Part shown: positions 7,828 to 63,828 of the stretch, piece by piece
Numbering within the stretch: position 1 is the first letter of the stretch
Layout: every line of letters begins with the position of its first letter
Source of the DNA: an uncultured Spirochaetota bacterium
GTDB taxonomy: Bacteria; Spirochaetota; Spirochaetia; SZUA-6; Fen-1364
DNA length: 64,000 nucleotides
Assembly (NCBI GenBank): GCA_963733835.1
Contig: CAVTER010000004.1
Span: forward strand, 43,102-107,101
Direction: 5' to 3'
Program-made: the position numbers and the translations under genes
The notes under the pieces: generated by a model
Seen by the model: only the letters and a program-made list of their open reading frames with translations
What the model was told of the DNA's origin: nothing
Databases searched by the model: none

Positions 7828-8868
7828 TCAACCCGTCGAGACGAGACTCCTGATCACCTCGATGGCCTCGCGCACGTCGTCGGCCGTGACGCGGCTGGAG
7901 GTGACGAAGCGAAGGCTCTTCGCGTCGGCGGCAAAGGCGAGCACGCCCCGGGCCTTCATCGCGGCCGCCAGGGTCCTCGCGTCCATGGACGGGTGCGCGA
8001 AGCCCGCGAGGACGAAGTTCGTCGGTGTGCCCGCGCGGTCCACGGTGAACCCGGGCAGGAGGGACAGGCCGTCGGCAAGCAGGCGCGCGTTGGCGTGGTC
8101 GTCGGCAAGCCGGCAGATGTTCGCCTCCTCCAGGGCCGCGAGGCCGCAGGCGGCAAGCCAGCCCGTCTGGCGCATCCCGCCGCCCAGCATCTTGCGATAG
8201 CGCCGCCCCCTTTTCATGAAGGCCGCGCTCCCGCACAGCAGGGATCCCACCGGCGCGCCCAGCCCTTTGGACAGGGACACCATGACCGAGTCCACGTGGC
8301 GGGTGAAGGCGCGCGCCTCCACGCCGAGGGCGACTGCCGCGTTGAAGATCCGCGCCCCGTCCAGGTGCACCGGGATGCCCAGCCGGTCGGCCAGCTTCTT
8401 CACAGCGGCGAATCTCTCGGGGCCCGCGGCTATGCCGCCGTAGCGGTAGTGCGTGTTCTCGAGGCAGATGAGAGAGGTGCGCGGGTAGTGGATGTCGTCC
8501 GCGCGGACGGCCCGCTCGATGGCGAGGGGGTCGGGCACCCCCGCGGGCCCCGGCACGCCGCGCAGCAGGAGCCCTCCCACGCACGCCGCGCCGCCGGTCT
8601 CGGAGCTGCGGATGTGCGCGTTCTCCTCCAGGATCACCTCGTCGCCGCGGGACGTCCACGAGAGAAGCGCCACCAGGTTGCCCATGGTGCCGCTGGGGAC
8701 GAAGATCGCCTCCTCCGTTCCCAGAAGCCGGGCAGCGGTCCGTTCCAGCTCCTCCTGCCCCGGGTCCTCCCCGTAGACAGAGTCTCCCAGGGGGGCGCGG
8801 AACGCCTCGTCCCGCATCCGCTCGGTGGGCAGCGTGATCGTGTCGCGCCTCAGGTCGATCGTCCGCAC
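7828..8868 (-). CDS. ltaE: Low-specificity L-threonine aldolase (PLP-dependent)
   Basis: A GTG start (VRTIDLRRDTITLPT) after a GGGAGG RBS. The sequence has SGTMGNL, HLDGARIFNA and the SLSKGLGAPVGS PLP-lysine region typical of LtaE/threonine aldolases. Confidence 0.75.
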   Translation of the reverse strand: MRTIDLRRDTITLPTERMRDEAFRAPLGDSVYGEDPGQEELERTAARLLGTEEAIFVPSGTMGNLVALLSWTSRGDEVILEENAHIRSSETGGAACVGGLLLRGVPGPAGVPDPLAIERAVRADDIHYPRTSLICLENTHYRYGGIAAGPERFAAVKKLADRLGIPVHLDGARIFNAAVALGVEARAFTRHVDSVMVSLSKGLGAPVGSLLCGSAAFMKRGRRYRKMLGGGMRQTGWLAACGLAALEEANICRLADDHANARLLADGLSLLPGFTVDRAGTPTNFVLAGFAHPSMDARTLAAAMKARGVLAFAADAKSLRFVTSSRVTADDVREAIEVIRSLVSTG

Positions 8869-8888
8869 AGCGTCCTCCCTTTCCTGCT

Positions 8889-10635
8889 TCAGTCCCGCTC
8901 CAGCCCCTGCTGCCTCCACAGCGTGTAGTACAGCCCCTTCTTCCGCAGCAGGTCGAGGTGGGAGCCCATCTCGACAACCCGGCCCTTCTTGAGGACCACG
9001 ATCCTGTCCGCGCGGGCGACGGTGGACAGCCTGTGGGCGATGAGCACGGTCACGAAGCTGGGCCGCGTGCGGATGATCTGGTCGATCGTGCGCGTGATCT
9101 CCTTCTCCGTCTCCGTGTCCAGGGAGCTGGTGGCCTCGTCGAAGATGAGCAGGTCGGGCCTGCGCAGGAGCGCGCGCGCGATGGCCAGGCGCTGCCTTTC
9201 CCCGCCGGAGAGCTTCAGTCCCCCCTCGCCGATCCGCGTGTCCAGGCCCTCCCTGCTGCGCTCGAGCAGCCCGGCCAGCTGCGCCGCGCGCAGGCTGGCC
9301 AGGCACTCCTCGTCGTCGGCGTCGGCCCGGGCGAAGCGCAGGTTGTCGCGGATGGTCCCCGCGAACAGCTCGATGGCCTGGGGCACGAAGCCCACGCGCC
9401 GGCGAAGCAGGTCGTAGTTCACCGCGGAGGAGTCTATTCCAGTTGAAGAGAATGCGCCCCGCGTCGGGCGTGTACAGGCCAAGGAGCAGCTTCACCAGGG
9501 TGCTCTTCCCCGCCCCCGAGGGCCCCACGAAGGCGATGCTTTCCCCCGACCGGGCCGCGAAGGACACCTCCTGGAGGGCGGGCTCGCGCGCGCCGGGGTG
9601 CCGGTAGCTCACGCCCGAGAACTCCAGGCTCTCGATCCCGTCGGGCACCGCGCCGGAAGGATTGGCGGGAGCCGTCTCCTGCGCGAGGATGCGCTCGACG
9701 TTCTCGAGGCTCGCGCGCGTCTCCTGGTACTTCGTGATGATGCTGCCGATCTCGCCCAGCGGCGAGAAGATCGCGAAGGAGTAGAACATCATGCTGAGGA
9801 ACTCGCCCAGCGTGATGAGCCGCAGGTACACCAGCACGAGCATCAGCAGGAGCAGCAGCGCCCGGAAGAAGTTGATGGCCGTGCCCTGGAAGAACATGAG
9901 CAGGCGCACCGTCTTCACCTTGGACAGCTCCAGGTCGAGGATGCGGGTGTTCGTCGCGTTGAGCCTGTCGATTTCCTGCGTCTCCAGCCCCAGGCTCTTT
10001 ATCAGCTCGATGTTGCGAAGGCTTTCCGTGGTGGAGCCGGCCAGGGCGTTGGTCTCGCCGAAGATCCGGGCCTGCACCTTCTTGATCCTGCGGCCGAGGG
10101 ACGAGACCAGGACGCCGAGGACCGGGGAGAGCACGAGCAGGGCGGCGCCGATGGACCAGTGCACGAAGAAGGAGTAGCCCAGGACGAGCACGAAGGCGAG
10201 CGAGGAGATGAAGATGGAGTTGATGGCCTGGCCGATCATGTCCCGGGAGTCGCTCCTCGCCTTCTGCAGCTGCTGCAGCACCGCGCCGCTCTGCTGGTCC
10301 TCGAATGCCCGGTAGGGCAGGCGCAGGGAGTGGGCGATGCCGTCGGCGTACATCCTGGCGCCGACGGACTGGGAGGCGACGTTCACGAAGTAGTCCTGGA
10401 AGTTCTTCGCGACGCGGCTCACCATGGCAACGCCGACGAAGGCGAGGATGAGAAGCCCGACCCCGCGGATGAACTCGGCGCGGGGCATCGAGGCAAAGTT
10501 CGTGGCGTAGCGGTCGACGATGATGCGGAAGATCTGCGGGTCCAGGAGGGAGAAGACCTGGTTGACGACCGCCAGGCCGATCGCGAGGGCGATCATTCCC
10601 CGGTAGGGACGCAGGTAGGCGAGCAGGAGCTTCAT
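8889..10635 (-). CDS. ABC exporter with fused permease and ATPase (MsbA/lipid-A exporter-like); one frameshift near 9440
   Basis: The N-terminal six-TM domain (MKLLLAYLRPYRGMIALAIGL...) is followed by an NBD: Walker A GPSGAGKST in one frame, then the rest (LSGGERQRLAIARAL, LIFDEATSSLD, AHRLST) in the 8889..9482 frame. Confidence 0.75.
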
Positions 10636-10646
10636 GGGTGAAGATA

Positions 10647-11591
10647 CTACACGTGGTTGCGCAGGGCGAGCTCCACGGGGTGGGGGTGCAGCCACACCTG
10701 GCGCGACAGGTAGGGCTCGGCGAACCTGCGCACGTGGTGGCGCAGCAGCACGAGCGGCACGACCAGGGGCACATGGCCCGCGTGGTAGTCGCCAATCACC
10801 TCGAGCAGCTCCGCCTTCTCGTCGGCGGCGAGCTGCTTCTTGAAGTAGCCCATGGCGTGCTGCAGGACGTTCACGTTCTTCTTCGGCGTGGCCTCGAGGC
10901 TGAGCGCGCGCATGAGACCGGCCAGGTACTCGCCGAGGACCGCCGTCCGCGGCCTGCCCTTCGCCGAGGCGACGAGCGCGCCCAGCGCAGAGACGGCCCG
11001 CGGGTCGTGCGACATGACGAGGAGCTTATGGTCGGTGTGAAAGCCGACAAGCCCCCGGATGCTGCCATCCGCCTGCTCGAAGTCCCTCCAGCGCCGGTAG
11101 ACGAACACCCTCTCGATGAAGTTCTCGCGCAGGCCCGGGTCGTTCAGCCGGCCGTCGTCCTCCACGGGCAGGAGGGGGAAGCGTCCCGTGAAGGCCCGGG
11201 CAAACAGGCCCACGCCCCTCCGCGACGGGCTTCCCTTCTCATCGTAGACCTTCACGGCCCTGAGGCCCGAGCTGGGCGAGGCGCTCTTGAAGACGAAGCC
11301 GCACAGGTCCTCGGCGGCCAGCGCGGCCAGGCGGCTCTCGCTCCAGCGGCGCATGCGCTGCGTGTGGTCGATCCCCGTCTTCGCGGTCACCAGCCGGGGC
11401 TCGGCGGGGTCGCCCACCAGGCGCATGGACTCCCGGGGCACGCCCAGCCCGCACTCGACCTCGGGACAGACGGGCACCCACTCGACGAACCTTCCCAGCG
11501 TGTCGTGCAGGTACCTGTCCAGCTTGTGCCCGCCGTTGTAGCGGACGTTCTGCCCGAGAAGACACGAGCTGATTCCCAGCCTGATTGCCAT
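10647..11591 (-). CDS. DUF523 (TudS-like) plus DUF1722 two-domain protein
   Basis: An intact 314-aa ORF. The N-terminus is MAIRLGISSCLLGQNVRYNGGHK with a CPEVECGLGVPRE Cys cluster, which fits DUF523. The C-terminal half resembles DUF1722 (YbgA-like). Confidence 0.6.
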   Translation of the reverse strand: MAIRLGISSCLLGQNVRYNGGHKLDRYLHDTLGRFVEWVPVCPEVECGLGVPRESMRLVGDPAEPRLVTAKTGIDHTQRMRRWSESRLAALAAEDLCGFVFKSASPSSGLRAVKVYDEKGSPSRRGVGLFARAFTGRFPLLPVEDDGRLNDPGLRENFIERVFVYRRWRDFEQADGSIRGLVGFHTDHKLLVMSHDPRAVSALGALVASAKGRPRTAVLGEYLAGLMRALSLEATPKKNVNVLQHAMGYFKKQLAADEKAELLEVIGDYHAGHVPLVVPLVLLRHHVRRFAEPYLSRQVWLHPHPVELALRNHV

Positions 11592-12610: not shown

Positions 12611-13264
12611 ATGTCCTCCATCACTTCCGTCATCTTCGACTTCGGCGGCGTGCTGGGCCTGCACCAGGACCCCGCCCAGGCACGGGTCCTGGCAGACCTG
12701 TGCGGCCTTCCCATGGACCGCTTCCGCACCCTGTACGCGAAGGACAGGCTGATGTGGGACAGGTCGACCGTGGACGCGGCAGGGTACTGGGGCAGCATCC
12801 TTGCCGCGGCGGGCCGCCCCGTTTCAGCCGACCTTGTCGGCCGGCTGGTTCGCGCCGACATCGCCGCGTGGACACGGGTCAACGCGCGCGTGGTCGCCTG
12901 GGCCGCGGCCCTGCGCAGGAAGGGCTTCCGCACGGCCATCCTTTCGAACATGCCGCAGGAGATCCTGGACGACATGTGGAAGGACCCGCGCCTCCAGTGG
13001 ATGGCCGAGTTCCCCGTGCGGGTCTTCTCCTGCGAGGTCCGCCTGGTGAAGCCCGAGCCGGAGATCTACCGCCTGTGCCTGGACTCCCTCGGCGTGCAGG
13101 CGTCCGAGGCGATCTTCGTCGACGACACGATCCATAACGTCGAGGGCGCGCAGGCGGTGGGGATACAGGCCCTGCTCTTCCTGACCGCCCCGGAGGCTGC
13201 CGTGGAGATCGAGAGGCGCTGGGGACTGCCCGTGGACGAGCTGGAGGGCGACGGGAATGGGTGA
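12611..13264 (+). CDS. HAD-family hydrolase (haloacid dehalogenase-like phosphatase)
   Basis: MSSITSVIFDFGGVL carries the DxG motif I. The sequence also has the SN motif and the FVDD motif IV. Confidence 0.75.
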   Translation: MSSITSVIFDFGGVLGLHQDPAQARVLADLCGLPMDRFRTLYAKDRLMWDRSTVDAAGYWGSILAAAGRPVSADLVGRLVRADIAAWTRVNARVVAWAAALRRKGFRTAILSNMPQEILDDMWKDPRLQWMAEFPVRVFSCEVRLVKPEPEIYRLCLDSLGVQASEAIFVDDTIHNVEGAQAVGIQALLFLTAPEAAVEIERRWGLPVDELEGDGNG

Positions 13265-15053
13265 GGCCCCGCGAGCAGCCGCACCCGGGGTCACCTTCAG
13301 CATGCGCCTGAAGATCACCCTCACGTTCCTGGTCATCGGGTCCCTCGCGAGTCTCCTGCTCGCCGCCGGCACATTCACGATCCTGCAGCGCAGCATGTTC
13401 GGCGAGCTGCAGAACAGGGTGGGCGGTCTTGCCCGGGTCGCCGCGCAGCTCGTCGATCCAGAGGCATGCCGGCGCCTGGTCGCCCGTCTGCGGCCCGGCA
13501 TGTCCGACGACGGGGTCCGTGAGGCGGAAGACTCGGCGGACTTCCTGTCCGTCTCCGAGGCGCTGAACGCCGTCCGGGCCACCGAGGAGCGCCTCGTCCA
13601 CTACATCTACCTTTTCGCGCCAACCCCCGACGCGGAGACGGCGCTCTTCGTCGTCGACGCGGACCTGCTCGCCGACCGCGCGCGCGCCGAGGCCGGCGAG
13701 CTGTCCGCCGATGAGCTGACGCGCTTCGGGTCGGCCTTCGATCTCTCGGACTTTCCCGTCGCGAGGAGGGCCATCGCCGAGAAGGTCCCGCTGGTGGAGC
13801 AGGGCTACACCTGGGACGAGGCCTACGGGGTGAACTCCCTCACCGGATACGCCCCTGTCTTCGGCAGGGACGGCACGACCCTTCTCGGGGTTCTCGGGAT
13901 CGACATGGTGGACAGCGACGTGCGCGCCGTGCTGCGCCGCGCGAGGATCGTCACGGGGGCGGTGGTGGGCGGCGCTCTGCTGCTCACGATCCTGGCATCC
14001 ATCGTCATGGGGTCGCTGTTCACCCGGGGCATCGTGTCGCTGGACACCGTCGTGCGCAGGTTCGGCCAGGAGAACCTCGAGGTGCGGGCCGTGGTCCGTT
14101 CGCGCGACGAGGTCGGCCGTCTGGGCCTGAGCTTCAATGCCATGGCCGAGACCATCCAGGGCTACAGCAGGCGGCTGGAGGACCTGCTGGGAGCGTACGG
14201 CAGGTTCGTGCCGCACGAGCTGCTGCGCCTGCTGTCCAAGGAGAGCATCGTCGATCTGCAGCTGGGGGACCATGTCCAGCGGGACATGACGGTGATGTTC
14301 TCGGACATCCGCTCCTTCACCGCGCTCTCCGAGTCGATGACGCCGTTCGAGACCTTCAACTTCCTCAACTCCTATCTCAAGCGCATGGGGCCCGAGATCC
14401 GCAGGAACAACGGGTTCATCGACAAGTACATCGGCGATGCGATCATGGCGCTGTTCCCCCGCTGCGCCGACGACGGCCTCGCGGCAGCCGTCGCGATGCA
14501 GCAGAGGCTTGCCGAGTACAACGGGCACAGGAAGTCCAGCGGGTACCGGCCCATCTCCATCGGCATCGGCGTGCACTCGGGCACCCTCATGCTGGGAACC
14601 GTGGGCGAGCACGAGCGGATGGACGGCTCGGTGATCGCCGACGCGGTCAACCTGGCCTCGCGGCTGGAGGCGCTCACGCGTCTGTACGGCGCCGCCATCC
14701 TCACGACCGGTCGGACTCTCAAGTCGCTGAGGGCAACCGGCAGGTTCGCCTGCCGCTTCATCGACAGGGTGCAGGTGAAGGGCAGGGAAGGGACTGTCCT
14801 GCTCTTCGAGGTCCTCGACGGCTGCCCCCCCGCGGAGAGGGAGATGAAGCTTTCCAGTCGCGAGGAGCTCGCCCGCGGGCTGCGTTCCTACTACGGCCGC
14901 AGGTTCGCGGAGGCCCTCGCGATCTTCGAAACGCTGCGCGCCCGCAATCCCTCCGACGAGGTTGTGCGCATCTTCCAGAACCGAACCAAGGTGCTCGCCG
15001 GGGTTGGCGCCCCGCCGGACTGGCGAGGAGTGGAGCTGATCGAGGCAAAGTAG
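13257..15053 (+). CDS. Membrane-anchored class III adenylate/guanylate cyclase with a periplasmic sensor domain and HAMP
   Basis: An intact 598-aa ORF: one TM helix, a periplasmic region of about 200 aa, a second TM, a HAMP-like region, then the cyclase catalytic domain (MFSDIRSFTAL, YIGDAIMALF, GIGVHSG). Confidence 0.8.
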   Translation: MGEAPRAAAPGVTFSMRLKITLTFLVIGSLASLLLAAGTFTILQRSMFGELQNRVGGLARVAAQLVDPEACRRLVARLRPGMSDDGVREAEDSADFLSVSEALNAVRATEERLVHYIYLFAPTPDAETALFVVDADLLADRARAEAGELSADELTRFGSAFDLSDFPVARRAIAEKVPLVEQGYTWDEAYGVNSLTGYAPVFGRDGTTLLGVLGIDMVDSDVRAVLRRARIVTGAVVGGALLLTILASIVMGSLFTRGIVSLDTVVRRFGQENLEVRAVVRSRDEVGRLGLSFNAMAETIQGYSRRLEDLLGAYGRFVPHELLRLLSKESIVDLQLGDHVQRDMTVMFSDIRSFTALSESMTPFETFNFLNSYLKRMGPEIRRNNGFIDKYIGDAIMALFPRCADDGLAAAVAMQQRLAEYNGHRKSSGYRPISIGIGVHSGTLMLGTVGEHERMDGSVIADAVNLASRLEALTRLYGAAILTTGRTLKSLRATGRFACRFIDRVQVKGREGTVLLFEVLDGCPPAEREMKLSSREELARGLRSYYGRRFAEALAIFETLRARNPSDEVVRIFQNRTKVLAGVGAPPDWRGVELIEAK

Positions 15054-15087
15054 CGCGGGCTTCGCACATGCTAGCGCAGTTGATGTA

Positions 15088-15146
15088 TTGACACTTTTGT
15101 CACGAAATGGTAGCTTTTGAATCGTGAATTATATCACCATTCACTT
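15088..15146 (+). promoter_or_regulatory. AT-rich promoter/operator island upstream of the hydrogenase operon
   Basis: A -35 TTGACA (15088-15093), 17-nt spacer, and an extended -10 TGgTAGCTT (15108-15116). The palindrome TGACA-N4-TGTCA overlaps the -35, and the inverted repeat GTGAA-N11-TTCAC lies at 15124-15145. Confidence 0.5.
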
Positions 15147-15161
15147 CTTGGGGGAGACAGC

Positions 15162-15676
15162 ATGAGCACAGCACTTCAGAAGCGTCCAATCGACGAGGTG
15201 ATTGCGAGCCACCCGCCCAACCGGGACCACCTGATCTCCATCCTGCAGGAGGTCCAGGGCGAGTATGGCTACCTCTCCCGCGACAGCATCAACAGGATCT
15301 CCGACTACCTGAAGCTGCCCTCGTCGAAGGTCTTCGGCGTGGCCACCTTCTACAACCAGTTCAAGCTGACCGCGCCGGGGAAGATCCAGATCCAGATCTG
15401 CCGGGGAACGGCCTGCCACGTGAAGGGATCGCTCAACCTGCTGGACGCCCTGATCACCGCGCTGGGCATCGAGGTCGGCCAGACGACCAGGGACGGGCTG
15501 TTCTCGCTCGAGACGGTCGCGTGCCTCGGGTGCTGCTCCATCGCTCCCGCGATGATGGTGAACGGGAGGTTCTTCGGCCGGCTCGACAAGAAGCAGGTCG
15601 AGGAGCTGGTCGACAAGTTCCGCGCCGCGGGCGGGGTCGACGGCGCTTCCGGGCCGAGGCCGGGGGGTGGAGGCAT
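15162..15676 (+). CDS. hydC: NuoE-like [2Fe-2S] subunit of an NADH-dependent [FeFe]-hydrogenase (HydC/HndA-like); no stop seen before the downstream HydB-like sequence
   Basis: MSTALQKRPIDEV...QICRGTACHVKGS...CLGCCSIAPAMMVNGRFFG is the NuoE/24-kDa 2Fe-2S motif. Upstream are a GGGGAGA RBS and an AT-rich promoter. A Gly-rich linker (GGVDGASGPRPGGGG) runs directly into the next domain in the same frame. Confidence 0.7.
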
Positions 15677-17512
15677 GAACAAGGTCTTCATCGGCATGGG
15701 CACCTGCGGCCTGGCCACCGGCGCGGGCGAGGTGAAGACGGCGGTCGAGAAGTGGGCGGCCGCGCGGCAACGTGGCGCGTGCAGATCACCCCGACGGGCT
15801 GCATCGGCTACTGCAAGGCCGAGCCGATCATGGACGTGGTGACCGACACGGGCCACCGGGTCTCCTACGGCAACGTCACTCCCGAGGTGGCCAGCTTCAT
15901 CCTGGACGAGGTGTTCGTGCGCAGGAACACTGAAGCTCGACGGCCTGCTGGGCCAGTTCAGGAACGGCAAGGCGCCGCTCGCCGGGCATCCCCCTGATCG
16001 ACGAGCACCCCTACTTCCGCAAGCAGGTGAAGTACGTGCTGCGCAACTGCGGGGTCATCAACCCCGAGTCCATCGCCGACTACCGCGCGCACGGCGGGTT
16101 CAAGGGCCTGGAGCGTGCGCTGCACCATGACCAGCGCCGAGGTGATCGCCGAGATCACGAAGTCGGGCCTGCGCGGCCGCGGCGGCGGCGGGTTCTCCGC
16201 CGGCAAGAAGTGGGAGTTCGCCCTGGCCTCGAAGAGCGAGAAGAAGTACGTGATCTGCAACGCCGACGAGGGCGACCCCGGGGCCTTCATGGACCGCTCC
16301 ATCCTCGAGGGCGACCCCTTCTCCGTGCTCGAGGGCATGATCATCGCCGGCTACGCCATCGGCGCCAACGAGGGCATCATCTACTGCCGCGCCGAGTATC
16401 CCCTCGCCATCGAGCGGCTCAGGAAGGCCATCGGCGTCGCTGAAGGCGGAGGGGCTTCTCGAGAAGCCGCGTCGGTCCGAGCGGGCTTCCAGTTCACCCT
16501 GCGGGTGAAGAAGGGCGCCGGCGCGTTCGTCTGCGGCGAGGAGACCGCGCTGATGGCCTCGGTCGAGGGCCGGCGCGGCATGCCCCGGCCCCGGCCGCCG
16601 TTCCCCGCCGTGTCGGGCCTGTTCCAGAAGCCCACGATCATCAACAACGTGGAGACCTTCGCCAACGTGCTCGCACATCCTGCGCGAGGGGGCCGCGCGC
16701 CTTCGCGGCCATGGGCACCGCAGAGCCGCAAGGGCACGAAGGTCTTCGCCCTCACCGGCAAGGTGATGAACACCGGCCTGGTCGAGGTGCCCATGGGCAT
16801 CACCCTGCGCGAGATCGTCTTCGACATCGGCGGCGGCATCCCCGACGGCAAGGCCTTCAAGGCCGTGCAGATCGGCGGTCCCTCGGGCGGCTGCATCCCG
16901 GCCGAGCACCTGGACACGAAGATCGACTACGAGTCGCTGAAGTCCGTCGGCGCCATGATGGGCTCGGGCGGCCTCGTGGTGATGGACGAGGACACCTGCA
17001 TGGTGGACGTGGCCCGCTACTTCCTGCGGCTTCATCACCACCGAGATCCTGCGGCAAGTGCATCCCCTGCCGCGAGGGCACGCAGCGGCTGTACGAGATC
17101 CTCGACTCCATCGTCTCGCCCTACTCGCAAGATGAAGAGCGAGGAGGACAACCTCCTGCGCTTCAACCGGGTGCTGAACATGGAGAGCCTGGCGCAGGTG
17201 ATCAAGGACACCTCGCTGTGCGGCCTGGGCCAGACGGCGCCCAACCCCGTGCTGTCCACCCTGCGGTACTTCCGCGAGGAGTACGAGGCGCACATCTACG
17301 ACCGGAAGTGCCCGGCCCACCAGTGCAAGGGCCTGCTGACCTACGAGATCGACACCGACGCCTGCACGGGGTGCACGCTGTGCGCGAAGAAGTGCCCCAC
17401 GCAGGCCATCGTGGGCGAGAAGAAGAAGGCCCACTACATCGTGGACGAGAAGTGCATCCGCTGCGGCATCTGCCGCGACGTGTGCCGCTTCAACGCGGTG
17501 ACGGTGAGCTGA
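15677..17512 (+). CDS. hydB: NuoF-like flavoprotein subunit of an [FeFe]-hydrogenase (HydB/HndC-like) with an N-terminal thioredoxin-like [2Fe-2S] domain; at least 4 frame disruptions
   Basis: The pieces are MNKVFIGMGTCGL...ITPTGCIGYCKAEP (Trx-like ferredoxin), then RNCGVINPESIADYRAHGGFKGLERAL, then ORF 16115..17512 with GRGGGGFSAGKKWE, the FMN/NADH motifs CNADEGDPGAF and GAGAFVCGEETALMAS, ESCGKCIPCREG (after a shift), and C-terminal 2x[4Fe-4S] CxxCxxCxxxCP. Confidence 0.75.
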
Positions 17513-17525
17513 GGAGGCGACATCG

Positions 17526-19256
17526 ATGGTGAACCTGACGATCAACGACCGGAAGACCCTGCAGGCCGCCCCCGGGACGACGATCCTGGACGCGGCGACC
17601 GCCGCGGGCGAGCGAGATCCCCACCCTGTGCCACATCAAGGAGCTGTTCCCGAGCGGCGCCTGCCGCATGTGCGTGGTGGAGTGCAAGGGGCAGCCCGGC
17701 CTCATCCCCTCCTGCGCCTTCCCGGTCGAGGAGGGCATGGAGGTCGCAGACGCGCAGCCCGCGGGTCGTCGAACGCCCGCCGCACGATCATCCAGCTCCT
17801 GCTCGCGAGCCACCCCTTCGACTGCCTCACCTGCGCCGAAGAACGGCTACTGCGAGCTGCAGTCCCTGGCCTCGGAGTACGGCATCGACAGGGTGCCCTT
17901 CGAGGGCAAGACCCGCCACCACTACACCGACTTCTCCTCCCCCTCCATCATCCGCGAGCCGGACAAGTGCATCCTCTGCGGCCGCTGCGTGCGCATCTGC
18001 GAGGAGATCCAGGGCGTGGCGGCCATCGACTTCACCCGGCGCGGCTTCGACACCATGGTGCTGCCGCCCTTCGAGATGGACCTGAGCGAGACCACCTGCG
18101 TCAACTGCGGCCAGTGCACGCTCGCCTGCCCGACCGGCGCGCTGCACGAGGTGCGCGCCGTCGAGAAGGTGATCCAGGTGCTGCAGGAGGGCAAGAAGTA
18201 CGTCGTGGCCCAGGCCGCCCCCGCGATCCGCGTGTCGCTGGGCGACTTCTTCGGGCTGGCCCCCGGCGCCAACGTGACAGGCAAGGTCGCCGCGGCGCCT
18301 GCGGCGCATGGGCTTCCGCCAGGTCTTCGACACCGACTTCGCCGCCGACCTCACGATCATGGAGGAGGGCACGGAGCTGGTGCGCAGGATCACGGAGGGC
18401 GAAGAAGCTTCCGCTGTTCACCTCCTGCTGCCCTGCCTGGATCAAGTTCGCCGAGCACTACTACCCCGAGCTGCTCGCGAACATCTCCACCTGCAAGAGC
18501 CCGCAGGAGATGATGGGCGCCACCATCAAGAGTTACCTCGCGAAGAAGATGTCGATCGACCCGCGCGACATCTACGTGGTGTCGGTGATGCCCTGCACGG
18601 CCAAGAAGTACGAGGCGCTGCGGCCCGAGCTGTCGAAGGACGGCGTCACGGACGTGGACGCGGTGCTCACCACCCGCCAGTTCAACAGGATGATGCAGAT
18701 CTTCGGCATCACCTTCGAGAGCCTCCCCGAGGAGGAGTTCGACAAGCCCTTCGGCGCGCCCACGGGGTCGGGCGACATCTTCGCCGCCTCCGGCGGGGTC
18801 ATGGAGTCGGCCCTGCGCTCGGCCTACTACCTGCTCACGGGCAAGGACCTGGAGAAGCTGGACTTCGAGGCCGTGCGCGGCATGGCCGGGGTGAAGGAGG
18901 CCAGCGTGAAGGTGGGCGACCGCACCATCCGCGTTGCCATCGCCAACCGCCTGTCCAACGCACGGCAGATCGCCGACAGGGTGCGCGCGGGGGACTCGCC
19001 CTGGGAGTTCATCGAGGTCATGGCCTGCCCCGGCGGCTGCGCCGGCGGCGGCGGCCAGATGTACGGCTACGACCCGCAGAGGACCGAGCAGAGGATCAAG
19101 GCGATCTACGCCCTGGAGAAGAGCAGGTCGGTGCGCCAGTCGTACAAGAACCCGGCAGTCGCCTCCGTGTACAAGGAGTACTTCGGCGAGCCGGGCTCGC
19201 ACACGGCGCACGAGCTCCTGCACACGAGCTACGAGTCACGGCCCCAGAAGGGCTGA
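17526..19256 (+). CDS. hydA: [FeFe]-hydrogenase catalytic subunit (HydA/HndD), about 3 frame disruptions
   Basis: An N-terminal 2Fe-2S/4Fe-4S ferredoxin region is followed by H-cluster motifs L1 (TSCCPAW), L2 (MPCTAKKYE) and L3 (EVMACPGGCAGGGGQ) in the 17526..19256 frame. Parts of the N-terminus sit in frames 17668..18513 and 18308..19369. Confidence 0.8.
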   Translation: MVNLTINDRKTLQAAPGTTILDAATAAGERDPHPVPHQGAVPERRLPHVRGGVQGAARPHPLLRLPGRGGHGGRRRAARGSSNARRTIIQLLLASHPFDCLTCAEERLLRAAVPGLGVRHRQGALRGQDPPPLHRLLLPLHHPRAGQVHPLRPLRAHLRGDPGRGGHRLHPARLRHHGAAALRDGPERDHLRQLRPVHARLPDRRAARGARRREGDPGAAGGQEVRRGPGRPRDPRVAGRLLRAGPRRQRDRQGRRGACGAWASARSSTPTSPPTSRSWRRARSWCAGSRRAKKLPLFTSCCPAWIKFAEHYYPELLANISTCKSPQEMMGATIKSYLAKKMSIDPRDIYVVSVMPCTAKKYEALRPELSKDGVTDVDAVLTTRQFNRMMQIFGITFESLPEEEFDKPFGAPTGSGDIFAASGGVMESALRSAYYLLTGKDLEKLDFEAVRGMAGVKEASVKVGDRTIRVAIANRLSNARQIADRVRAGDSPWEFIEVMACPGGCAGGGGQMYGYDPQRTEQRIKAIYALEKSRSVRQSYKNPAVASVYKEYFGEPGSHTAHELLHTSYESRPQKG

Positions 19257-19284
19257 GGGAGGGGAGGACCCCGGGGGACGGGCC

Positions 19285-21352
19285 ATGGTGTCGGTCTACA
19301 CGGTCAGCGACACGTGCAAGAAGTGCTACTCGTGCGTGCGGTCCTGCCCGACAAAGGCCATCCAGGTGAAGGGCGGGCAGGCCGAGATCATCGAGGAGTT
19401 CTGCATCTCCTGCGGGTGGTGCGTGACCGCCTGCTCGCAGGGGGCCAAGCGCGTGCGCTCCTCCCTCGACCAGGTGCGCGCGCTGCTGGCGGGGGCCGGC
19501 AGCACCTACGCGCTGCTCGCACCCTCGTTCCCCGCGGCGTTCCTCGACACCCCGCCGCGCCAGCTTGTGGGCGCGCTGCGCGCTGTGGGCTTCGCCGGCG
19601 TGTTCGAGGTGGCATTCGGGGCCGACCTCGTCTCGTACGAGTACTACCGGCGGTTCCGCGCCATCGTGGAACGCTCCCCCGACGACTTCCTCATCTCCTC
19701 GCCCTGCCCCTCCGTGGTGCAGTACGTGGAGAAGATGGTGCCCGAGCTGGCCGGCCATCTCGCCCCCGTGGTCTCGCCCATGGAGGCCACGGCCCGGATG
19801 GTGAGGAGCAGGGTCGACCCGCGGGCGCAGCTCGTGTTCATCGGCCCCTGCGTGGCGAAAAAAGTCGAGGGGGACGGCGCTTCCGGCGCCTCGGGCGCTT
19901 CCGGCGCCGGTGTGGATGCCGTGCTGACCTTCGAGGAGCTGGTGGAGCTGTTCGCCGCGGCGGGGGTGGCACCCCCCCAGGCGGCGCCTGCCGACTTCAA
20001 CCCCCCGCACGCGAACCTCGGCAGGATCTACCCGGTCACCGGCGGGCTGCTCAAGGCAGCCTCGATCGACGCGGACATCCTCGAGAGCCCCGTCTACGTC
20101 GTGGAAGGGCCCGAGAGGGTGATGGACATGCTGCACGTGCTGTCCAACCGGGTGCGCACAGGCCAGAGGGTGAGCTACAGGCTGTTCGACCTCCTGTTCT
20201 GCGAGGGGTGCATCGGCGGCCCCTCGATGGTGAACGACCTCACCTTCTACGAGCGCAAGAAGTACGTGGTGCAGTACATGCATCACCAGCCCATGGCCCG
20301 CGACATCGAGGAGTGGGCCGAGGAACACGCCGAGTACCTCGACATCGACCTGTCCACGCGCTTCCACCCCGTGACGCGCGAGGAGGTGGCCGCCCCCGAG
20401 GAGGAGATCCGCAGGATCCTCTCCCAGACGGGAAAGCTCACCCCCGAGGACGAGCTGAACTGCGGTGCCTGCGGCTACCCCTCCTGCAGGGACAAGGCCC
20501 TCGCCGTGTACAGGGGCAAGGCCGAGGTGGAGATGTGCCTGCCCGTACCTCATCGCCCGGGTGGAGTCGGCGATGAAGGACCTCACGGCGAACCAGACCC
20601 GGCTCATCCAGGCGGAGAAGCTCGCCTCGATGGGCCAGATGGCGGCGGGGATCGCCCACGAGATCAACAACCCCCTCGGCGTCGTGCTCATGTACTCTCA
20701 CCTGCTGAAGGACGAGCTTCCCGAGGGCGCCCCGGGCAGGGCCGACGCGGACAGGATCATCGCGGAGGCCGAGCGCACGCAGAAGATCGTGCGCGGGATC
20801 CTGAACTTCGCGCGCGAGGAAAAGGTCGAGCGCAGGCCCACCGACATCAATGCGCTTCTCCGTGACAGCGTGACCGGGATCGCGGGAACTTCACAGAACG
20901 GGAAAATCCGTGTAGAGTGGGCTCTCGACGAACGCCTCGCCCCGCAGAACGTGGATGCGGGGCAGCTGCGCCAGGTCTTCGACAACATCGTGAAGAACGC
21001 GCGGGAGGCCATGCCCGACGGCGGGACGCTCCGCGTGTCGACGGAGGACGGGGAGGGGGAGTTCACGGTCCGCGTCGCGGACTCGGGTCCCGGCATCCCG
21101 GAGGAGAACCTGCCCAAGATGTTCTCTCCCTTCTTCACGACGAAGAAGGTGGGCAAGGGCACGGGCCTGGGCCTGTCCGTGTGCTACGGCATCGTGAAGA
21201 TGCACGGCGGGACCATCCAGGCCTCGAACAACCCCGAGGGCGGCGCGTGCTTCACCGTGCGCATCCGCCGCGTCGTTTCCGCGGCCAACGGGAAGGCGGC
21301 GCAGGCGGCAGTTTCGAAGGAGGACGGACGTGGCTCGAGTACTGATCGTTGA
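19285..21352 (+). CDS. Sensor histidine kinase whose input is a sensory [FeFe]-hydrogenase-like (HydS-type) domain: 2x[4Fe-4S] ferredoxin, degenerate H-domain, Cys4 cluster, HisKA and HATPase; one frameshift near 20540
   Basis: [22 protein letters not shown]...[11 protein letters not shown] is a 2x4Fe-4S region. Degenerate H-cluster motifs follow: ISSPCPSVV (versus TSCCPxW), [21 protein letters not shown]. There is a [12 protein letters not shown] linker and CGACGYPSC. After the frameshift come HisKA ([12 protein letters not shown]) and HATPase_c ([20 protein letters not shown]) in ORF 20465..21352. Confidence 0.75.
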
Positions 21353-21734
21353 CGACGACGCGGACCTCATCGCGGGGCAGCGGGCGTTCCTGGAATCAAG
21401 CGGCTACACCGTCGAGTCTGCCAACTCGATCGACGAGGGCCTCGCCCGGGCGAGCGAGTTCGCCCCCGACCTCATCCTGGCGGACCTCATGATGGAGCAC
21501 TACGACTCGGGATTCGTGTTCTGCAAGAAGGTGCGCGACCTCCCCGGGCTGGCGACGGTTCCCATCATCATGCAGACAGCCGCCCCCCGCAAGATCGGCT
21601 TCACCTTCGAGGGAAGCGCGGCACCGGGGCGGGAGTGGATGAAGGTGGACGAGGTGCTCACCAAGCCCGTTCCCCTCGAGCACCTGGTGGGCAAGATCGA
21701 GCAGCACCTGTCGGGCAAGGCCCGCCGTGCGTAG
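21330..21734 (+). CDS. Single-domain CheY-like response regulator
   Basis: [13 protein letters not shown]...DLILADLMME...TKP. Its start overlaps the end of the upstream kinase. Confidence 0.8.
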   Translation: MARVLIVDDDADLIAGQRAFLESSGYTVESANSIDEGLARASEFAPDLILADLMMEHYDSGFVFCKKVRDLPGLATVPIIMQTAAPRKIGFTFEGSAAPGREWMKVDEVLTKPVPLEHLVGKIEQHLSGKARRA

Positions 21735-21757
21735 GACGCGGTGCCGCGGGTGAGCTG

Positions 21758-23261
21758 ATGGACGGCGAGCGGCCCCCCCAGCCCAGCGCGGACGCCTCCG
21801 CGGAGCCGGTCCCGAGGGACCGCGAGCAGGTCCGGATTCTCGTCATCGACGACGAGGAGGGCATGCGCGAGGGCATGCGGCGGGTGCTGGAGCGGCGGGG
21901 TTTCGCCGTGCAGACCGCCCGCGACGGGGAGACCGCCATCCGCATGCTCGGCGAGGCCCCCTACGACCTGGCCCTCGTCGACCTGAAGATGCCCGGCATC
22001 GACGGGTTCAAGGTCACCGAGCACATCCGCCAGCGCTTCGGCGGCACGCATGGTGGTGGTCATCGTCTCGGCCCTCGCCACGGTGGAGGCGGCCGTGGAG
22101 GTGACCCAGCGCGGCGCCTTCGACTTCCTGGTCAAGCCGTTCACCCCCGACGACCTGCTGCAGGTCGTGAACAGGGCCGTGCAGCAGTGGCGCCTGATCC
22201 GCGAGCGCGAGAAGTACCTCTCCGAGCTGGCCACGGAGCGCAGCCTCTCCCACCAGATGATCTCCTCGATGCACGAGGGGGTGGTGGTGCTGAACGTGCG
22301 CCGCGAGCCGGTGCTGATGAACCCGCGGGCCGAGCACTTCCTGGGAAAGCGCTTCCGGGAGGGCCTGACCCTCGCGGAGCTGTTCACCGACCTGGACGCC
22401 AGCGCGGCGATCGAGGGGGTCCTCGACGCCGGGCCGCAGGCACCCGACAGGTCCGTGCAGGTGAGGGCGGGAGAGGCGATGCTCCAGGTGAGCGTGACGC
22501 CGCTCACCCGCGACGGGGCGGCCGGCGGGGCGATCGTGATCCTCACCGACGTCACGGCGAGCTGGAAGGCCGAGCAGGACAAGAACAGGTTCGTCTCCAT
22601 GGTGGCCCACGAGCTGAAGAGCCCGCTCTCGGCGATCATCAACTACATCAACGTCATCCTGACGGGGATGTTCGACAGGGACCCGGGGAAGATCCACGAG
22701 ATGCTCGACCGCTGCAAGGTGCGCGGCGAGGCGCTGCTGGACCTCGTGCGCGACCTGCTGTACATCAACGCGCGCGAGGTGGGAAAGGTCCAGCGCACGC
22801 TGGAAGACCTGGACCTGAAGGAGATCCTCGCGGCGCAGCTGGAGTTCTTCAAGGTCCAGGCGGACAAGAAGAAGCTGGTCACGGCCCTCGAGGCGCCGCC
22901 CGCCGCCTGCCCCGTGCACGCGGACAGGGGCGACATGGACAGGATCTTCATGAACCTCATCTCGAACGGCATCAAGTACAACCGGGACAAGGGCAGCCTC
23001 ACGGTCGCCGTGGCCGACGGCGGGGAGAGCTGGATCGTGTCCGTGTCGGACACCGGCATCGGGATGAGCGAGGCCGAGCGCGCAAACCTGTTCCAGGAGT
23101 TCTACAGGGTCAAGAGCGCGAAGACATCGGGAATCGCGGGCACGGGCCTGGGCCTTGCCACGGTGCACCGGGTGCTGGGCGAGTACAACGGCGCGATCGC
23201 CGTCGAGTCCAGGCCCGACGCGGGCTCCACCTTCCGCGTCACCTTCCCCAAGCGCGCATAG
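21758..23261 (+). CDS. Hybrid receiver-PAS-histidine kinase (REC, PAS, HisKA, HATPase_c); one frameshift near 22040
   Basis: The N-terminal receiver (RILVIDDEEGMREGMRR...DLALVDLKMPGIDG) continues after a shift in ORF 22050..23261 with FDFLVKPF, a PAS-like region, the H-box MVAHELKSPL, the N-box NLISNGIKY and G-boxes DTGIGM, GTGLGL. Confidence 0.75.
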
Positions 23262-23290
23262 GCCGCGCCCCGGCGCCTGGCCCCCGCCGG

Positions 23291-23704
23291 CTACCGGTCC
23301 GCGGGGCACACCATGCGGACGGTCGGGAAATTCCTCCTGATTCTCGCGGGGTCCCGTGTCAGCAGCACGAGTTTCGACACCGCCGCGTGCGCGCCGATGA
23401 AGAGGTCGGGCAGGGGGCTCGTGCGGGCCCCGCCCGCCCTGCGGTAGCCGCGGAAGACCTTTCCCGCGAGGAACAGGGCCTCCCGGGGCATGTCGCTCCA
23501 GGCCAGGCCGCTGCCGCGGAGCGCCGACTCCAGCTCCTCGATGCGGGAGAAGCGGATCGAGACTTCCGAGTACACGATGGGATCGAGGAACACCGTGCCG
23601 TCGGCGGCCGCCCTCTCGAGGGTGTCGAGCGACCACTGCATCCACCGGACATCGTTCGTGAAGACGTCGAGCAGCACGGATGAATCGACGAGGTATTCCG
23701 CCAC
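23291..23704 (-). CDS. vapC: PIN-domain toxin VapC
   Basis: A 137-aa ORF starting MAEYLVDSSVLLDVF with conserved acidic PIN residues. It is immediately downstream of, and overlapping, the antitoxin gene. Confidence 0.75.
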   Translation of the reverse strand: MAEYLVDSSVLLDVFTNDVRWMQWSLDTLERAAADGTVFLDPIVYSEVSIRFSRIEELESALRGSGLAWSDMPREALFLAGKVFRGYRRAGGARTSPLPDLFIGAHAAVSKLVLLTRDPARIRRNFPTVRMVCPADR

Positions 23705-23919
23705 TACCCGCCCCGCGTCAGCCGCAGGATCTGCTCGGTCGACATCGTCACGTCTCCCCGGCCGACCAGCCCGCGCAGGGGAGTGTCGGACCTGCGCAGC
23801 GCCCGCAGCACGATCCTCCCGTCCTCCTCGATGAACTCGACTTCGGCGTGCGCATCGATGCGGTACTTGCGCCGCAGGGCCTGGGGGATCGTGACCTGTC
23901 CCTTGATGGTGACTCGCAT
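23704..23919 (-). CDS. vapB: AbrB/SpoVT-type antitoxin VapB
   Basis: A 71-aa ORF (MRVTIKGQVTIPQALRRKYRID) with a swapped-hairpin AbrB/MazE-like N-terminus. Confidence 0.7.
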   Translation of the reverse strand: MRVTIKGQVTIPQALRRKYRIDAHAEVEFIEEDGRIVLRALRRSDTPLRGLVGRGDVTMSTEQILRLTRGG

Positions 23920-24065
23920 GGTAATACCCTTACAGTAATACTGCCCCCACTGCCCCGCCGGTCAACCTCCCGCCTCCAATGAACGGGGCGAATCGGCGCC
24001 GGCATTGCCGTTGCGCGCGGGGAGCCTTCGGCCTACACTGCCGCCCGGGGGGGAGGAAAGCCCGC

Positions 24066-24707
24066 ATGCCGTACACCTACCAGATCGCCACCAGCGCGTC
24101 GCAGGACCGCCTGGAGAAGCTGATCGCCGAACGCCTGGCGCCCGGCGCGGACAGGGAGAGGATCGACGCCCGGATCTGGGACCTCTTCGGCGAGACGTGG
24201 GCCGTCATGTTCACGGACCTTTCGGGCTTCTCGCGCGGGGTCGCCGAGTTCGGCATCATCCACTTCCTGCAGGTCATCTTCGAGAGCCAGCGCATCCTGG
24301 TTCCCTGCATCGACAGGCACGACGGGATACTGTTGAAGAGCGAGGGCGACAGCCTCCTGGTGATCTTCCGCTCGGTGCGAAAGGCGCTGGAGTGCAGCCT
24401 CGCCATGCAGCGCGCGGCGCGGGACTACAACAGGGGCAGGACAGAGGCGGAGCAGATCCTGCTGTGCATCGGGCTGGGCTTCGGCCAGGTGCTGCGCATC
24501 GGCGACCACGACGTGTTCGGTGCCGAGGTGAATGCCGCGGCAAAGCTGGGCGAGGACACGGCAAAGGCATGGGAGATCCTCGTCACGGGCGCGGTGGCCG
24601 AGGGGGGACGGGGAGTCTCGGGGGTGTCGTTCAGTCCGATCCAGACCGTGCCGCCCGGGGCCGAGCGCGCGTTCCGCGCGGTGTACTCGCTGGAACGCAT
24701 GCCCTGA
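24066..24707 (+). CDS. Minimal stand-alone class III nucleotidyl cyclase domain protein (about 213 aa, no sensor or membrane domain)
   Basis: MPYTYQ...AVMFTDLSGFS...SEGDSLLVIF...GIGLGFGQVL...FGAEVNAAAKL are cyclase catalytic-core motifs. An RBS (GGGAGGAAAG) lies upstream. Confidence 0.65.
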   Translation: MPYTYQIATSASQDRLEKLIAERLAPGADRERIDARIWDLFGETWAVMFTDLSGFSRGVAEFGIIHFLQVIFESQRILVPCIDRHDGILLKSEGDSLLVIFRSVRKALECSLAMQRAARDYNRGRTEAEQILLCIGLGFGQVLRIGDHDVFGAEVNAAAKLGEDTAKAWEILVTGAVAEGGRGVSGVSFSPIQTVPPGAERAFRAVYSLERMP

Positions 24708-32972: not shown

Positions 32973-33105
32973 GCAGGCTCCCTTCGGCTGACTATTGTAC
33001 CAATGTAATAATACAACAGGAGAATAGTACACTCGCCCGTGTGTGTCAAGCGGTATGACCGGATCCGCGATCGAAGTCGATCCCCGGATGGGCTATACTG
33101 TGGGA

Positions 33106-34072: not shown

Positions 34073-35278
34073 TCAGGCCTTCTTCAGCATCTCCTCCAGC
34101 AGGAGGTGGCAGTACAGGAGCTGGCGCGGAATGTGGAACGGGCCCTTCCACATGTTGCCCTTCAGGTCGTGCGACACGGTGCCGTCCCTGTGCAGGTAGC
34201 CGAACCACTCGCCGTACTGCCTGGTCGGGGAACCTGTCCATCGACCACGACAGTATCTTCTCGAACCAGCGCTCCCACTTCGGGTCTCCGGTGAGGTCGT
34301 AGGCGAGCAGCGCCGCATAGATGGCCTCGTTGTGCGGCCAGAACAGCTTCATGTCCCACTCGTACTGCACGGGCTGCCTGCCCTCGATGTCGACGAAGTA
34401 GAGGATGCCGCCGTACTTCGGGTCCCACCCCAGGTCGAGCGACCACTCGAGGATGGGCAGCGCCTTGTCGACAAGGGCCCTGTCGTTCCTCTGCTTCCCC
34501 TCTGCCATGATGAACCACGCCGTCTCGATCGCGTGGCCCGGGTTCACGCACCGGCCCTCGGGAGAGTCGCCCAGGTACTCGCCGTTCGGCCCCACGGTTT
34601 CCAGGAGAGCCTTCTTCTCGGGCTTCACGAAGAGGCGGAAGACCTCGTCGATCTGCGTGTCGATCATCGCGTCGTAGGGGAGGGGCGAGGCGGTGGTGTC
34701 GGCCCGGCGCATCACCTGCAGCGTGTTGATCTGGATCATCGACATGGAGTGCCCGCGCATGGGCCTCGTCTCCTGGAAGACCTTCGGCTCGAGAGACCCG
34801 GGGCCGGCCATTTCTTCGCGGCGGTCTCCTGGACGAAGCGCATGAGCGACCTGGCCTTCTCGAGGGACCGTGCGTCGCCGGCAGCCCTGCCGTACTCGGC
34901 GAAGGCCATGATCGCGAAGATCTCGGCGAAGAGGTAGCGGCGCTTGCGCAGCGGCCTGCCGTCGCGCGTGACCGAGTAGAAGACCCTGCCGTCCGTGTCG
35001 AAGCCGTGCGCCAGGATGAAGTCGATCGCGTGCTTCGACAGGGCCAGCCACTCCTCGCGCTTTTCCAGGTCGTTGTACAGGCGCGCGAGGGTCCACCCGA
35101 TCCTTCCCTCGACCCACATCGGCTTGTCGGAGCAGAGGATCTCGCCCTTCCTGTCCAGGAACGTCGTGAATCCTCCGTGCTGCCGGTCGGTGGCATGGCT
35201 GATCCAGAACGGGATGACGTTGTCCACCAGCTCGCTGCGGAACATGTCGCTCAGCTGCTTCATGCGGCGCTTTGTCAT
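34073..35278 (-). CDS. N-acylglucosamine 2-epimerase (AGE) / cellobiose-2-epimerase-family protein, 2 frameshifts
   Basis: The fragments 34736..35299 (MTKRRMKQLSDMFRSELVDNVIPFWISHATDRQHGGF), a middle frame (...AIETAWFIMAEGKQRNDRALVDKA...ILYFVDIEGRQPVQYEWDMKLFWPHNEAIYA) and 34073..34318 (FGYLHRDGTVSHDLKGNMWKGPFHIPR) join into an AGE-family (alpha/alpha)6 barrel protein. Confidence 0.7.
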
Positions 35279-35410
35279 GGGACCCTCCCGAACAGGCATC
35301 GATCGTGGAACCAGGGACGTACGATCGTCGAATCGTACCGTACCCGATGCATCCTGTCAACGAAGCACGCGGAAAATGGGCCCATTCGGAGAAATCTTCA
35401 CAAAAGCCTT

Positions 35411-42554: not shown

Positions 42555-42850
42555 CGGCCGGCCTCGCGTTCCTCGAGAAGGGCCCGCAGGGCGCTTGCCC
42601 CTTCCGGGAGCTTCGGCATGCGCCGGTTCACGAAGGCCCGGGCATCGAGAGGCTTGCGCGGCGGGGCGAGCACACCGCGCCTGACCAGGTCAGCCACCAG
42701 CTCACTGCCCATGCCGGGATCGCTGTTGACCGGTTCCAGCCTCGCGACGGGCGTGTCCCTGTCGAGGATCAGCACGGTCTCGCCCCGCTTGACCTCTTCT
42801 ATCAATCGACTGAGCGTGTTCTTCGCAACAGATATTGTAGCTTTCTTCAT
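42551..42850 (-). CDS. Phd/YefM-type antitoxin
   Basis: MKKATISVAKNTLSRLIEEVKRGETVLILDRDTPVARLEP is the Phd/YefM fold. A TATAGCTATA palindrome lies in its promoter region. Confidence 0.7.
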   Translation of the reverse strand: MKKATISVAKNTLSRLIEEVKRGETVLILDRDTPVARLEPVNSDPGMGSELVADLVRRGVLAPPRKPLDARAFVNRRMPKLPEGASALRALLEEREAGR

Positions 42851-42922
42851 ATGGCTATTATAGCTATATCTGGGAGCGTCGTCAATTCCGTGGCTGTCGG
42901 GCGGGAGTCTTCTCCGGCCCTC

Positions 42923-63614: not shown

Positions 63615-63763
63615 CCGCAGCATCGGAGCACGAGGGCCCACGACGGGCGAGAACCCGGCCTGCGCAGGCAGCGTGGGCCGGGCGCTCCTGCCGGTGGCGA
63701 GCGGCTCGCAGGGGCGGAGGATCGTCCGCAGACGTGGCGATGGCTATCGTCACGAATACCTGG

Positions 63764-63794
63764 TTGACATACTTTTGATACTATAGTACTATAG
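63764..63794 (+). promoter_or_regulatory. Promoter plus palindromic operator upstream of the RHH gene
   Basis: TTGACA-17-TACTAT. The palindrome CTATAGTACTATAG overlaps the -10. Confidence 0.45.
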
Positions 63795-63828
63795 CGATGT
63801 GAATCATCAACCGTCGGGCAGGTTTGTG

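Follow-up and report, generated by a model that had tools for sequence, protein, structure and literature searches.

A probable Rex-controlled promoter for an NADH-dependent [FeFe] hydrogenase operon in an uncultured Spirochaetota bacterium

The repressor Rex recognizes an 18-20 bp palindrome with the consensus TTGTGAANNNNTTCACAA, and its binding to DNA is disrupted by NADH (PMC6391272). The same consensus also appears in PMC2883068. The Rex regulon includes genes for FeFe and NiFe hydrogenases (PMC6391272), and for the bifurcating Hnd hydrogenase of Solidesulfovibrio, the hnd promoter has been predicted to contain a Rex site (PMC10084766). The Rex operators (ROP sites) of Firmicutes, Thermotogae, and Desulfovibrionales, including those of hyd and ech in Caldicellulosiruptor and the predicted site of hnd in Solidesulfovibrio fructosivorans, are 18-bp repeats of the TTGTGAA-N4-TTCACAA type. 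They overlap the core promoter of NADH-linked [FeFe] hydrogenase operons, and rex is often found beside the operon. In addition, HydS-type regulation has been proposed in Ruminococcus albus and Solidesulfovibrio, where a sensory-type [FeFe] hydrogenase and signalling genes lie beside the structural hydrogenase genes together with a Rex site. No published Rex regulon for Spirochaetota was found in the literature.

Here, we analysed an intergenic region in front of a hydrogenase operon in a 64-kb stretch of DNA (the window) from an uncultured Spirochaetota bacterium. The region carries the same type of 18-bp repeat as the known ROP sites, and here too the operon is one for an NADH-linked [FeFe] hydrogenase, with the repeat lying across its core promoter and rex often neighbouring the related operons. 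Unlike the known ROP sites, it belongs to an uncultured high-GC Spirochaetota lineage; TCGTGAA/TTCACGA is a frequent form of the half-sites, the spacer between the -35 and -10 elements holds a second half-site that is invariant, and the boxes are phased at 33-35 bp. The locus also resembles HydS-type loci in that a sensory-type [FeFe] hydrogenase and signalling genes accompany the structural genes and a Rex-type site. It differs from them in that a histidine kinase, receivers, and a cyclase come after the sensor or are fused to it, with no DNA-binding output seen and no operator assignable to the sensor. A Rex-controlled hydrogenase promoter is the expected pattern, and the lineage is unstudied; what is mildly new is limited to the TCACGA hexamer, invariant within the spacer, and to the placement of the sites at a phase of 34 bp.

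The AT-rich island and its core promoter

The interval 15054-15161 is intergenic, with a HAMP/nucleotide-cyclase gene (13257-15053) on its 5' side and a NuoE-like gene on its 3' side; the promoter elements, the operators, and the operon described below are on the forward strand. The GC content of the exact interval was 46%, and that of the 64-kb window averaged 68.8% with a standard deviation of 6.4%. A 70-bp core at 15080-15149, which contains the promoter and the operators, had a GC content of 33% and held the lowest-GC 60-bp stretch of the window. The region is thus AT-rich, as the earlier note had claimed, but the figure of roughly 40% GC given there for 15054-15161 does not describe the interval. 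The core is followed by the ribosome-binding site GGGGGAG (15150-15156) and the ATG at 15162 of the first operon gene, which together span 15150-15164 and were assigned from the sequence and Pfam.

Three other AT-rich islands with 35-45% GC were observed in the window, at 32980-33045, 42790-42870, and 63745-63810. The first of these separates a divergent gene for a GntR-family regulator from the gene for a beta-helix protein and has GT/AC-rich repeats, and the third contains TTGACA plus a tandem ACTATAGTACTATAG. These islands are probably further promoter-operator regions.

For comparison, orthologous loci were collected by a scan with the NuoE-like protein, using one genome per species. This gave 80 loci, and those nearest to the window were from uncultured, fairly high-GC Spirochaetota of peat, fen, and soil. 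The upstream regions of 20 Spirochaetota orthologues aligned to the window almost gap-free. In these 20 aligned promoters, TATTGAC, TC.CGA, the TA of the -10 element, and G.G..T....TCAC.A were invariant, whereas the DNA 5' of the -35 element and 3' of the inverted repeat was unconserved. The layout common to the aligned regions consisted of TATTGACA, TTTTnnTCACGA, nATGnTA, ~8 nt, and ATTGTGAAnnnnTTCACAAT. In ~25 uncultured Spirochaetota loci, TATTGACA, the TCACGA of the spacer, TGnTA, and, after six more bases, the 18-bp inverted repeat followed one another gap-free. Four closer relatives were then added, namely a JGI contig (L127; 82-91% nucleotide identity to the window over aligned segments), an ENA contig (L128; 85-88% identity), and L103 and L001 (both ~84% identical). 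Among the five closest sequences, the segment from the -35 element to the inverted repeat was conserved, whereas the remaining intergenic DNA was not alignable. This conserved layout supports the earlier note's interpretation of the region as a promoter with operators for the hydrogenase operon.

A pattern scan with the window's own variant of the box returned 44 loci, among which L103 was the one true orthologue; the other matches proved to be unrelated soil-bacterial repeats and were discarded. A 23-mer of the promoter had no exact match among metagenomes, and no record was found with exactly the protein of the upstream cyclase gene. Separately, ~20 unrelated soil metagenome contigs (54-55% GC; including L084, L085, L090, L093, L094, L097, L104, L106, L112, L113, L117, and L122) had the conserved palindromic block GAGATCGTGAATCGATTCACGATTCACGAT in common, each time within the same sequence context. 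This block may represent another operator family built from GTGAA/TTCAC half-sites.

We examined the core promoter against these alignments. The element TATTGACA at 15086-15093 includes the -35 hexamer TTGACA (15088-15093), and its TATTGAC was found in 20/20 aligned orthologous promoters and also in the five closest sequences. An extended -10 element, TGgTAGCTT, is located at 15108-15116, with the TG at 15108-15109 and the hexamer TAGCTT at 15111-15116, leaving a spacer of 17 nt from the -35 hexamer. The TA of the -10 hexamer was invariant in the relatives, and its ATG(G/C)TA context was common to most of them. Both the TTGACA and the extended TGnTAGCTT had been pointed out in the earlier note, and both were found where it had placed them. 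TTGACA, the 17-nt spacer, and TGgTAGCTT together correspond to a sigma-70-type promoter, for which a spacer of 16-18 nt and either TATAAT or an extended -10 TGnTAnnnT are expected. On the other hand, TAGCTT agrees with the -10 consensus at only 3/6 positions, which weighs against this assignment and explains why a consensus promoter scan did not list the site. From the geometry of the promoter, transcription is predicted to start near 15123, within 15122-15124, 6-8 nt past the -10 element.

The Rex-type box at the predicted transcription start

The 18-bp repeat TCGTGAA-TTAT-ATCACCA at 15122-15139 (O2) was identified as a Rex-type operator by its match to the consensus, its score on a clade-specific matrix, and its register in the alignment. 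It agreed with the Rex consensus TTGTGAANNNNTTCACAA at 11 of the 14 specified positions, with the GTGAA-N4-nTCAC core intact, and it was the sole match in the 64-kb window when up to three mismatches were allowed. On a matrix derived from the boxes of the relatives, O2 scored 19.8 bits; the next site in the window scored 0.9, and the maximum among shuffled sequences was 9.3. By contrast, with a median near 32 bits in the box family and three mismatches to the consensus, O2 is among the weaker members, and this counts against the assignment. The three departures are at positions 2, 12, and 17, which are also variable among the relatives.

The box was retained throughout the orthologous promoters. 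A perfect Rex consensus, ATTGTGAATTAGTTCACAAT, was present in many relatives, e.g., L003, L006, L008, and L013, and the related loci, each of ~8 kb, contained one such box each, always 32-71 nt 5' of the start codon of the NuoE-like gene. GTGA was found at +35/+36 in 23/26 promoters and TCAC at +45/+46 in 24/26. In the closest relatives, with 84-90% nucleotide identity, TCGTGAA....ATCACCA was kept, and L127 and L128 differed from the window only in the central N4. Variation confined to the central N4 is as expected for a dimer that contacts both arms. O2 begins 6 nt past the -10 hexamer and overlaps the predicted transcription start, extending from approximately +1 to +17. The site has several attributes of an ROP site: an 18-bp inverted repeat that matches TTGTGAA-N4-TTCACAA and whose half-sites are centred one helical turn from each other, retention at orthologous promoters with changes concentrated in the central N4, and overlap with the core promoter, as judged from the predicted transcription start, of an NAD(H)-linked target of the NuoE/NuoF/HydA type.

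These results make it likely that the island is the sigma-70-type promoter of an NADH-dependent [FeFe] hydrogenase operon that is repressed by Rex and released at high NADH. What the analysis shows is the sequence of the island, its conservation, its single occurrence in the window, and the presence of rex beside orthologous operons, whereas the transcription start, the binding of Rex at O2, the response to NADH, and the role of TCACGA are predicted. In the proposed mechanism, RNA polymerase would use TTGACA, the 17-nt spacer, and TGnTAGCTT and would initiate near 15123. At a low NADH/NAD+ ratio, a Rex dimer would occupy O2 at approximately +1 to +17 and block RNA polymerase. When NADH builds up, Rex would dissociate and the hydrogenase would be expressed, so that reducing equivalents could be disposed of as H2. 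Other genes expected in the Rex regulon of this organism are adhE, ldh, pfor, and those for hyd maturases.

The spacer half-site and competing explanations

A second conserved element was found inside the core promoter. The hexamer TCACGA (15100-15105) in the spacer is a Rex-like right half-site, and with the -35 hexamer in the left-arm slot it forms the composite TTGACAC-TTTT-GTCACGA at 15088-15105 (O1). TTGAC-N7-TCACGA occurred in exactly one copy per locus in 21 loci, always at the hydrogenase promoter, and TCAC at offset +12 was present in 26/26 promoters. The distance from O1 to the main box, O2, is 34 bp. In related Spirochaetales, TCACGA is the right half-site of clear Rex boxes (TTCACGA, ATCACGA), and four loci (L025, L026, L030, and L022) have two to four Rex-type boxes at a 33-35 bp phase, with the -35 slot in phase. 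An extra left half-site, T(T/C)GTGA, was detected 34 nt 5' of the -35 element in 6/26 relatives (L001, L003, L006, L008, L013, and L103) but was absent from the window. Another motif, AATTGTATAC, was observed ~100 nt upstream in L007, L011, L016, and L053 and was likewise absent from the window. The score of O1 on the full-palindrome matrix was -3.0 bits, which argues against its assignment to Rex. Judging from sequence and spacing, we infer that O1 is probably a weak second Rex site in which the -35 hexamer TTGACA, two positions away from TTGTGA, serves as the left arm.

As a tentative extension, the promoter may have a multi-site architecture, in which O0 at -34 (in some relatives), O1, and O2 stand in a fixed 33-35 bp phase and would be bound cooperatively or in a higher-order complex; alternatively, a second regulator might act at TCACGA, so that the NADH/NAD+ ratio would be read together with another signal, e.g., H2. 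Taken by itself, the proposal that the spacer TCACGA is the target of a regulator other than Rex, with the promoter integrating two signals, seems rather unlikely. The invariance of TCACGA, despite the poor full palindrome (-3.0 bits) that it forms with the -35 hexamer as its partner, is what this proposal would explain. However, the clear Rex boxes of related Spirochaetales use exactly this hexamer as their right half-site, and its position in the promoter agrees with their phase of 33-35 bp.

The core TGTGA-N6-TCACA is common to CRP and Rex sites, and O2 has the same GTGA-N6-TCAC core geometry as CRP/FNR-family sites. A protein of that family might therefore act at the box, with a cyclic nucleotide supplied by the cyclase encoded at 13257-15053 or at 23979-24707. 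In the window, the operon thus has a cyclase gene on either side, and the upstream one is syntenic in eight relatives (L001, L003, L006, L008, L012, L013, L127, and L128). However, the box was kept in relatives that lack the upstream cyclase (L002, L004, L007, L009-L011, and L014-L018), and the agreement with the Rex consensus extends to the flanks, which are conserved (ATTGTGAAT...TTCACAAT), and to the A/T bases on the inner side. The box also lies 3' of the -10 element and is centred near +8, which is the position of a repressor and not the -41.5 or -61.5 of a CRP/FNR-family activator site. Furthermore, 19 loci have rex next to the operon, whereas a low-sensitivity tblastn with E. coli queries detected no gene of the CRP or FNR type in the window or in ~130 loci. 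With the core present but the position wrong and no cognate regulator gene detected in that low-sensitivity search, we consider control by CRP or FNR improbable.

The earlier note had named two palindromes and had suggested, as their possible readers, a redox regulator or the H2-sensing phosphorelay encoded downstream. Both palindromes are present, TGACA-CTTT-TGTCA at 15089-15102 and GTGAA (15124-15128) followed after 11 nt by TTCAC (15140-15144). The region contained three perfect inverted repeats with 5-bp arms, compared with 1.25 +/- 1.34 in dinucleotide shuffles, 16% of which reached three, and the chance expectation for TGACA-N4-TGTCA with at most one mismatch was 0.78 per window. Since these counts are within chance, the named palindromes are not significant on their own; which bases matter is shown only by the comparison with relatives. 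When the related genomes were compared, neither palindrome was conserved in the form named. TGACA-N4-TGTCA was found in 0/25 orthologous promoters. In place of the window's TGTCA, the relatives read TATCA, CATCA, TCTCA, TTTCA, or AATCA, and the closest of them read TATCA, CATCA, or TCTCA. GTGAA-N11-TTCAC was present in 4/26 promoters, those of the window, L127, L001, and L103, and TCAC at the offset of its right arm was likewise found in 4/26. The close relative L128 reads TTCGA at this position. The conserved spacing is GTGAA-N4-nTCAC rather than GTGAA-N11-TTCAC, and the outer TTCAC at 15140-15144 is restricted to the subclade of the window and probably incidental.

These comparisons bear directly on the idea that the two palindromes are operators for an output regulator of the phosphorelay. 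A sensory-type hydrogenase, histidine kinases, and receiver proteins do follow the operon, both repeats exist, and GTGAA-N11-TTCAC is shared with L127, L001, and L103. However, among the 26 promoters TGACA-N4-TGTCA is confined to the window and the outer TTCAC is missing from 22, including that of L128, and the number of repeats is within chance. Moreover, the stand-alone response regulator (134 aa) consists of a receiver domain only and lacks a domain for binding DNA, and the other protein with a receiver is a histidine kinase of the hybrid type. Control by the phosphorelay through these palindromes is thus very improbable. Nothing was found to link the phosphorelay to the promoter, whereas the suggestion of a redox regulator agrees with the Rex-type box 3' of the -10 element.

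Finally, although the arms of the inverted repeat, which would be part of the 5' untranslated region as predicted, could pair, a role as an mRNA-leader hairpin controlling translation, stability, or attenuation, in place of a DNA operator, is very improbable, because there was no Rfam match, the fold energy was no better than that of shuffled sequences (z = +0.64), and the four predicted pairs were all invariant with zero covariation, while the flanks varied without compensation. With no Rfam match, no fold signal, and no covariation in the stem, the conservation is one of DNA sequence.

The hydrogenase operon and rex

The operon regulated by this promoter spans 15162-19256 and, on the basis of Pfam, synteny, and frame analysis, encodes a NuoE-like protein (HydC type), a thioredoxin-like plus NuoF-like protein (HydB type), and the [FeFe] hydrogenase HydA. 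These genes encode a HydABC-type NADH-dependent hydrogenase, which is a known class of Rex target; because NuoE-like, NuoF-like, and HydA proteins are encoded together, NADH is a substrate of the enzyme.

Compared with L001, L003, L010, L017, L103, and L127, the NuoF-like and HydA genes contained ~21 single-base insertions between 15768 and 18402. All of the differences were insertions, none was located in a homopolymer, and many formed frame-restoring triples (e.g., 16439/16468/16469 and 16669/16700/16718); as assembled, HydA is split over three frames. In the comparison with L001, the neighbouring HAD and cyclase genes were free of such insertions. Genes were similarly fragmented on L128, a related long contig, and the JGI contig L127 was intact. 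The simplest explanation is that the insertions are consensus artefacts of long-read assembly. However, the operon may be in real decay and non-functional, or the assembly may be unreliable at the single-base level, and this counts against our preferred interpretation of the locus. If the insertions are real, relaxed selection may account for the weakened Rex box. Because the promoter aligns to its relatives without indels, the conclusions on the promoter are independent of this question.

Other genes in the window also appeared frame-broken, at 7828-10695 and 34736-35299; in these, an ABC-transporter ATPase domain was split over two overlapping open reading frames, and a GlcNAc 2-epimerase domain was reduced to its first third. 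Such breaks agree with indels being a general problem of the assembly. In addition, a 31-nt insertion relative to L001 was observed at 15631-15661, where the NuoE-like gene meets the gene that follows it; the insertion places both in one frame. The NuoE-like protein was longer in the close relatives (179-185 aa) than in the others (161 aa).

The region downstream of the operon, 19260-24707, encodes a second, sensory-type [FeFe] hydrogenase with Fer4, H-cluster, and PF04060 FeS domains. A histidine kinase apparently forms part of this protein or is encoded next to it, and the genes further on are those for a receiver that stands alone, a hybrid of receiver and histidine kinase, and a nucleotide cyclase of small size. 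None of these relay genes was seen to encode an output protein that binds DNA.

With respect to the regulator itself, tblastn detected no rex gene in the 64-kb window, and this counts against the assignment to Rex. Across the 80 loci, however, rex adjoined the orthologous operon in 19, which belong to several phyla. It was divergent from the operon in the Spirochaetales loci L022, L025, and L026 and preceded it in the same orientation in loci of Lentisphaera, Acidobacteriota, and others; in Wallbacteria-type loci, rex abutted the NuoE-like gene (L021, L024, L027, L029, L031, L032, and L054). Of the matches to the Rex consensus within the Spirochaetales, Lentisphaera, and Acidobacteriota loci, all or nearly all were located upstream of rex-hyd. 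In one Wallbacteria locus (L023, 3338-4492), rex and the NuoE-like gene formed a single open reading frame of 384 aa, so that Rex and NuoE are apparently fused.

Close homologues of rex belong to the standard gene set of related spirochaetes, in whose genomes they occupy a conserved UPF0164-rex-dnaE locus, and one of these contigs has a GC content of 62.8%. Two of the rex contigs, ERZ25039477 and ERZ25039513, have accessions neighbouring that of the ENA contig L128 (ERZ25039462), although they are not demonstrably from the same bin. The gene order in L081, L082, L129, and L130 was a TP_0855-like gene, UPF0164, and then rex. The gene for the DNA polymerase III alpha subunit was two genes downstream of rex in L082 and L129, and in L081 a gene for a small thioredoxin-like [2Fe-2S] protein directly followed rex.

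The Rex-repressed promoter proposed here would extend the control of NADH-dependent HydABC-type hydrogenases by Rex to uncultured high-GC Spirochaetota of peat, fen, and soil. It would provide a promoter/operator model for a widespread H2-producing enzyme, consisting of a -35 element, a spacer half-site, an extended -10 element, and a Rex box at the transcription start. Such a model could be used for predicting Rex regulons in these genomes and for interpreting metatranscriptomes.
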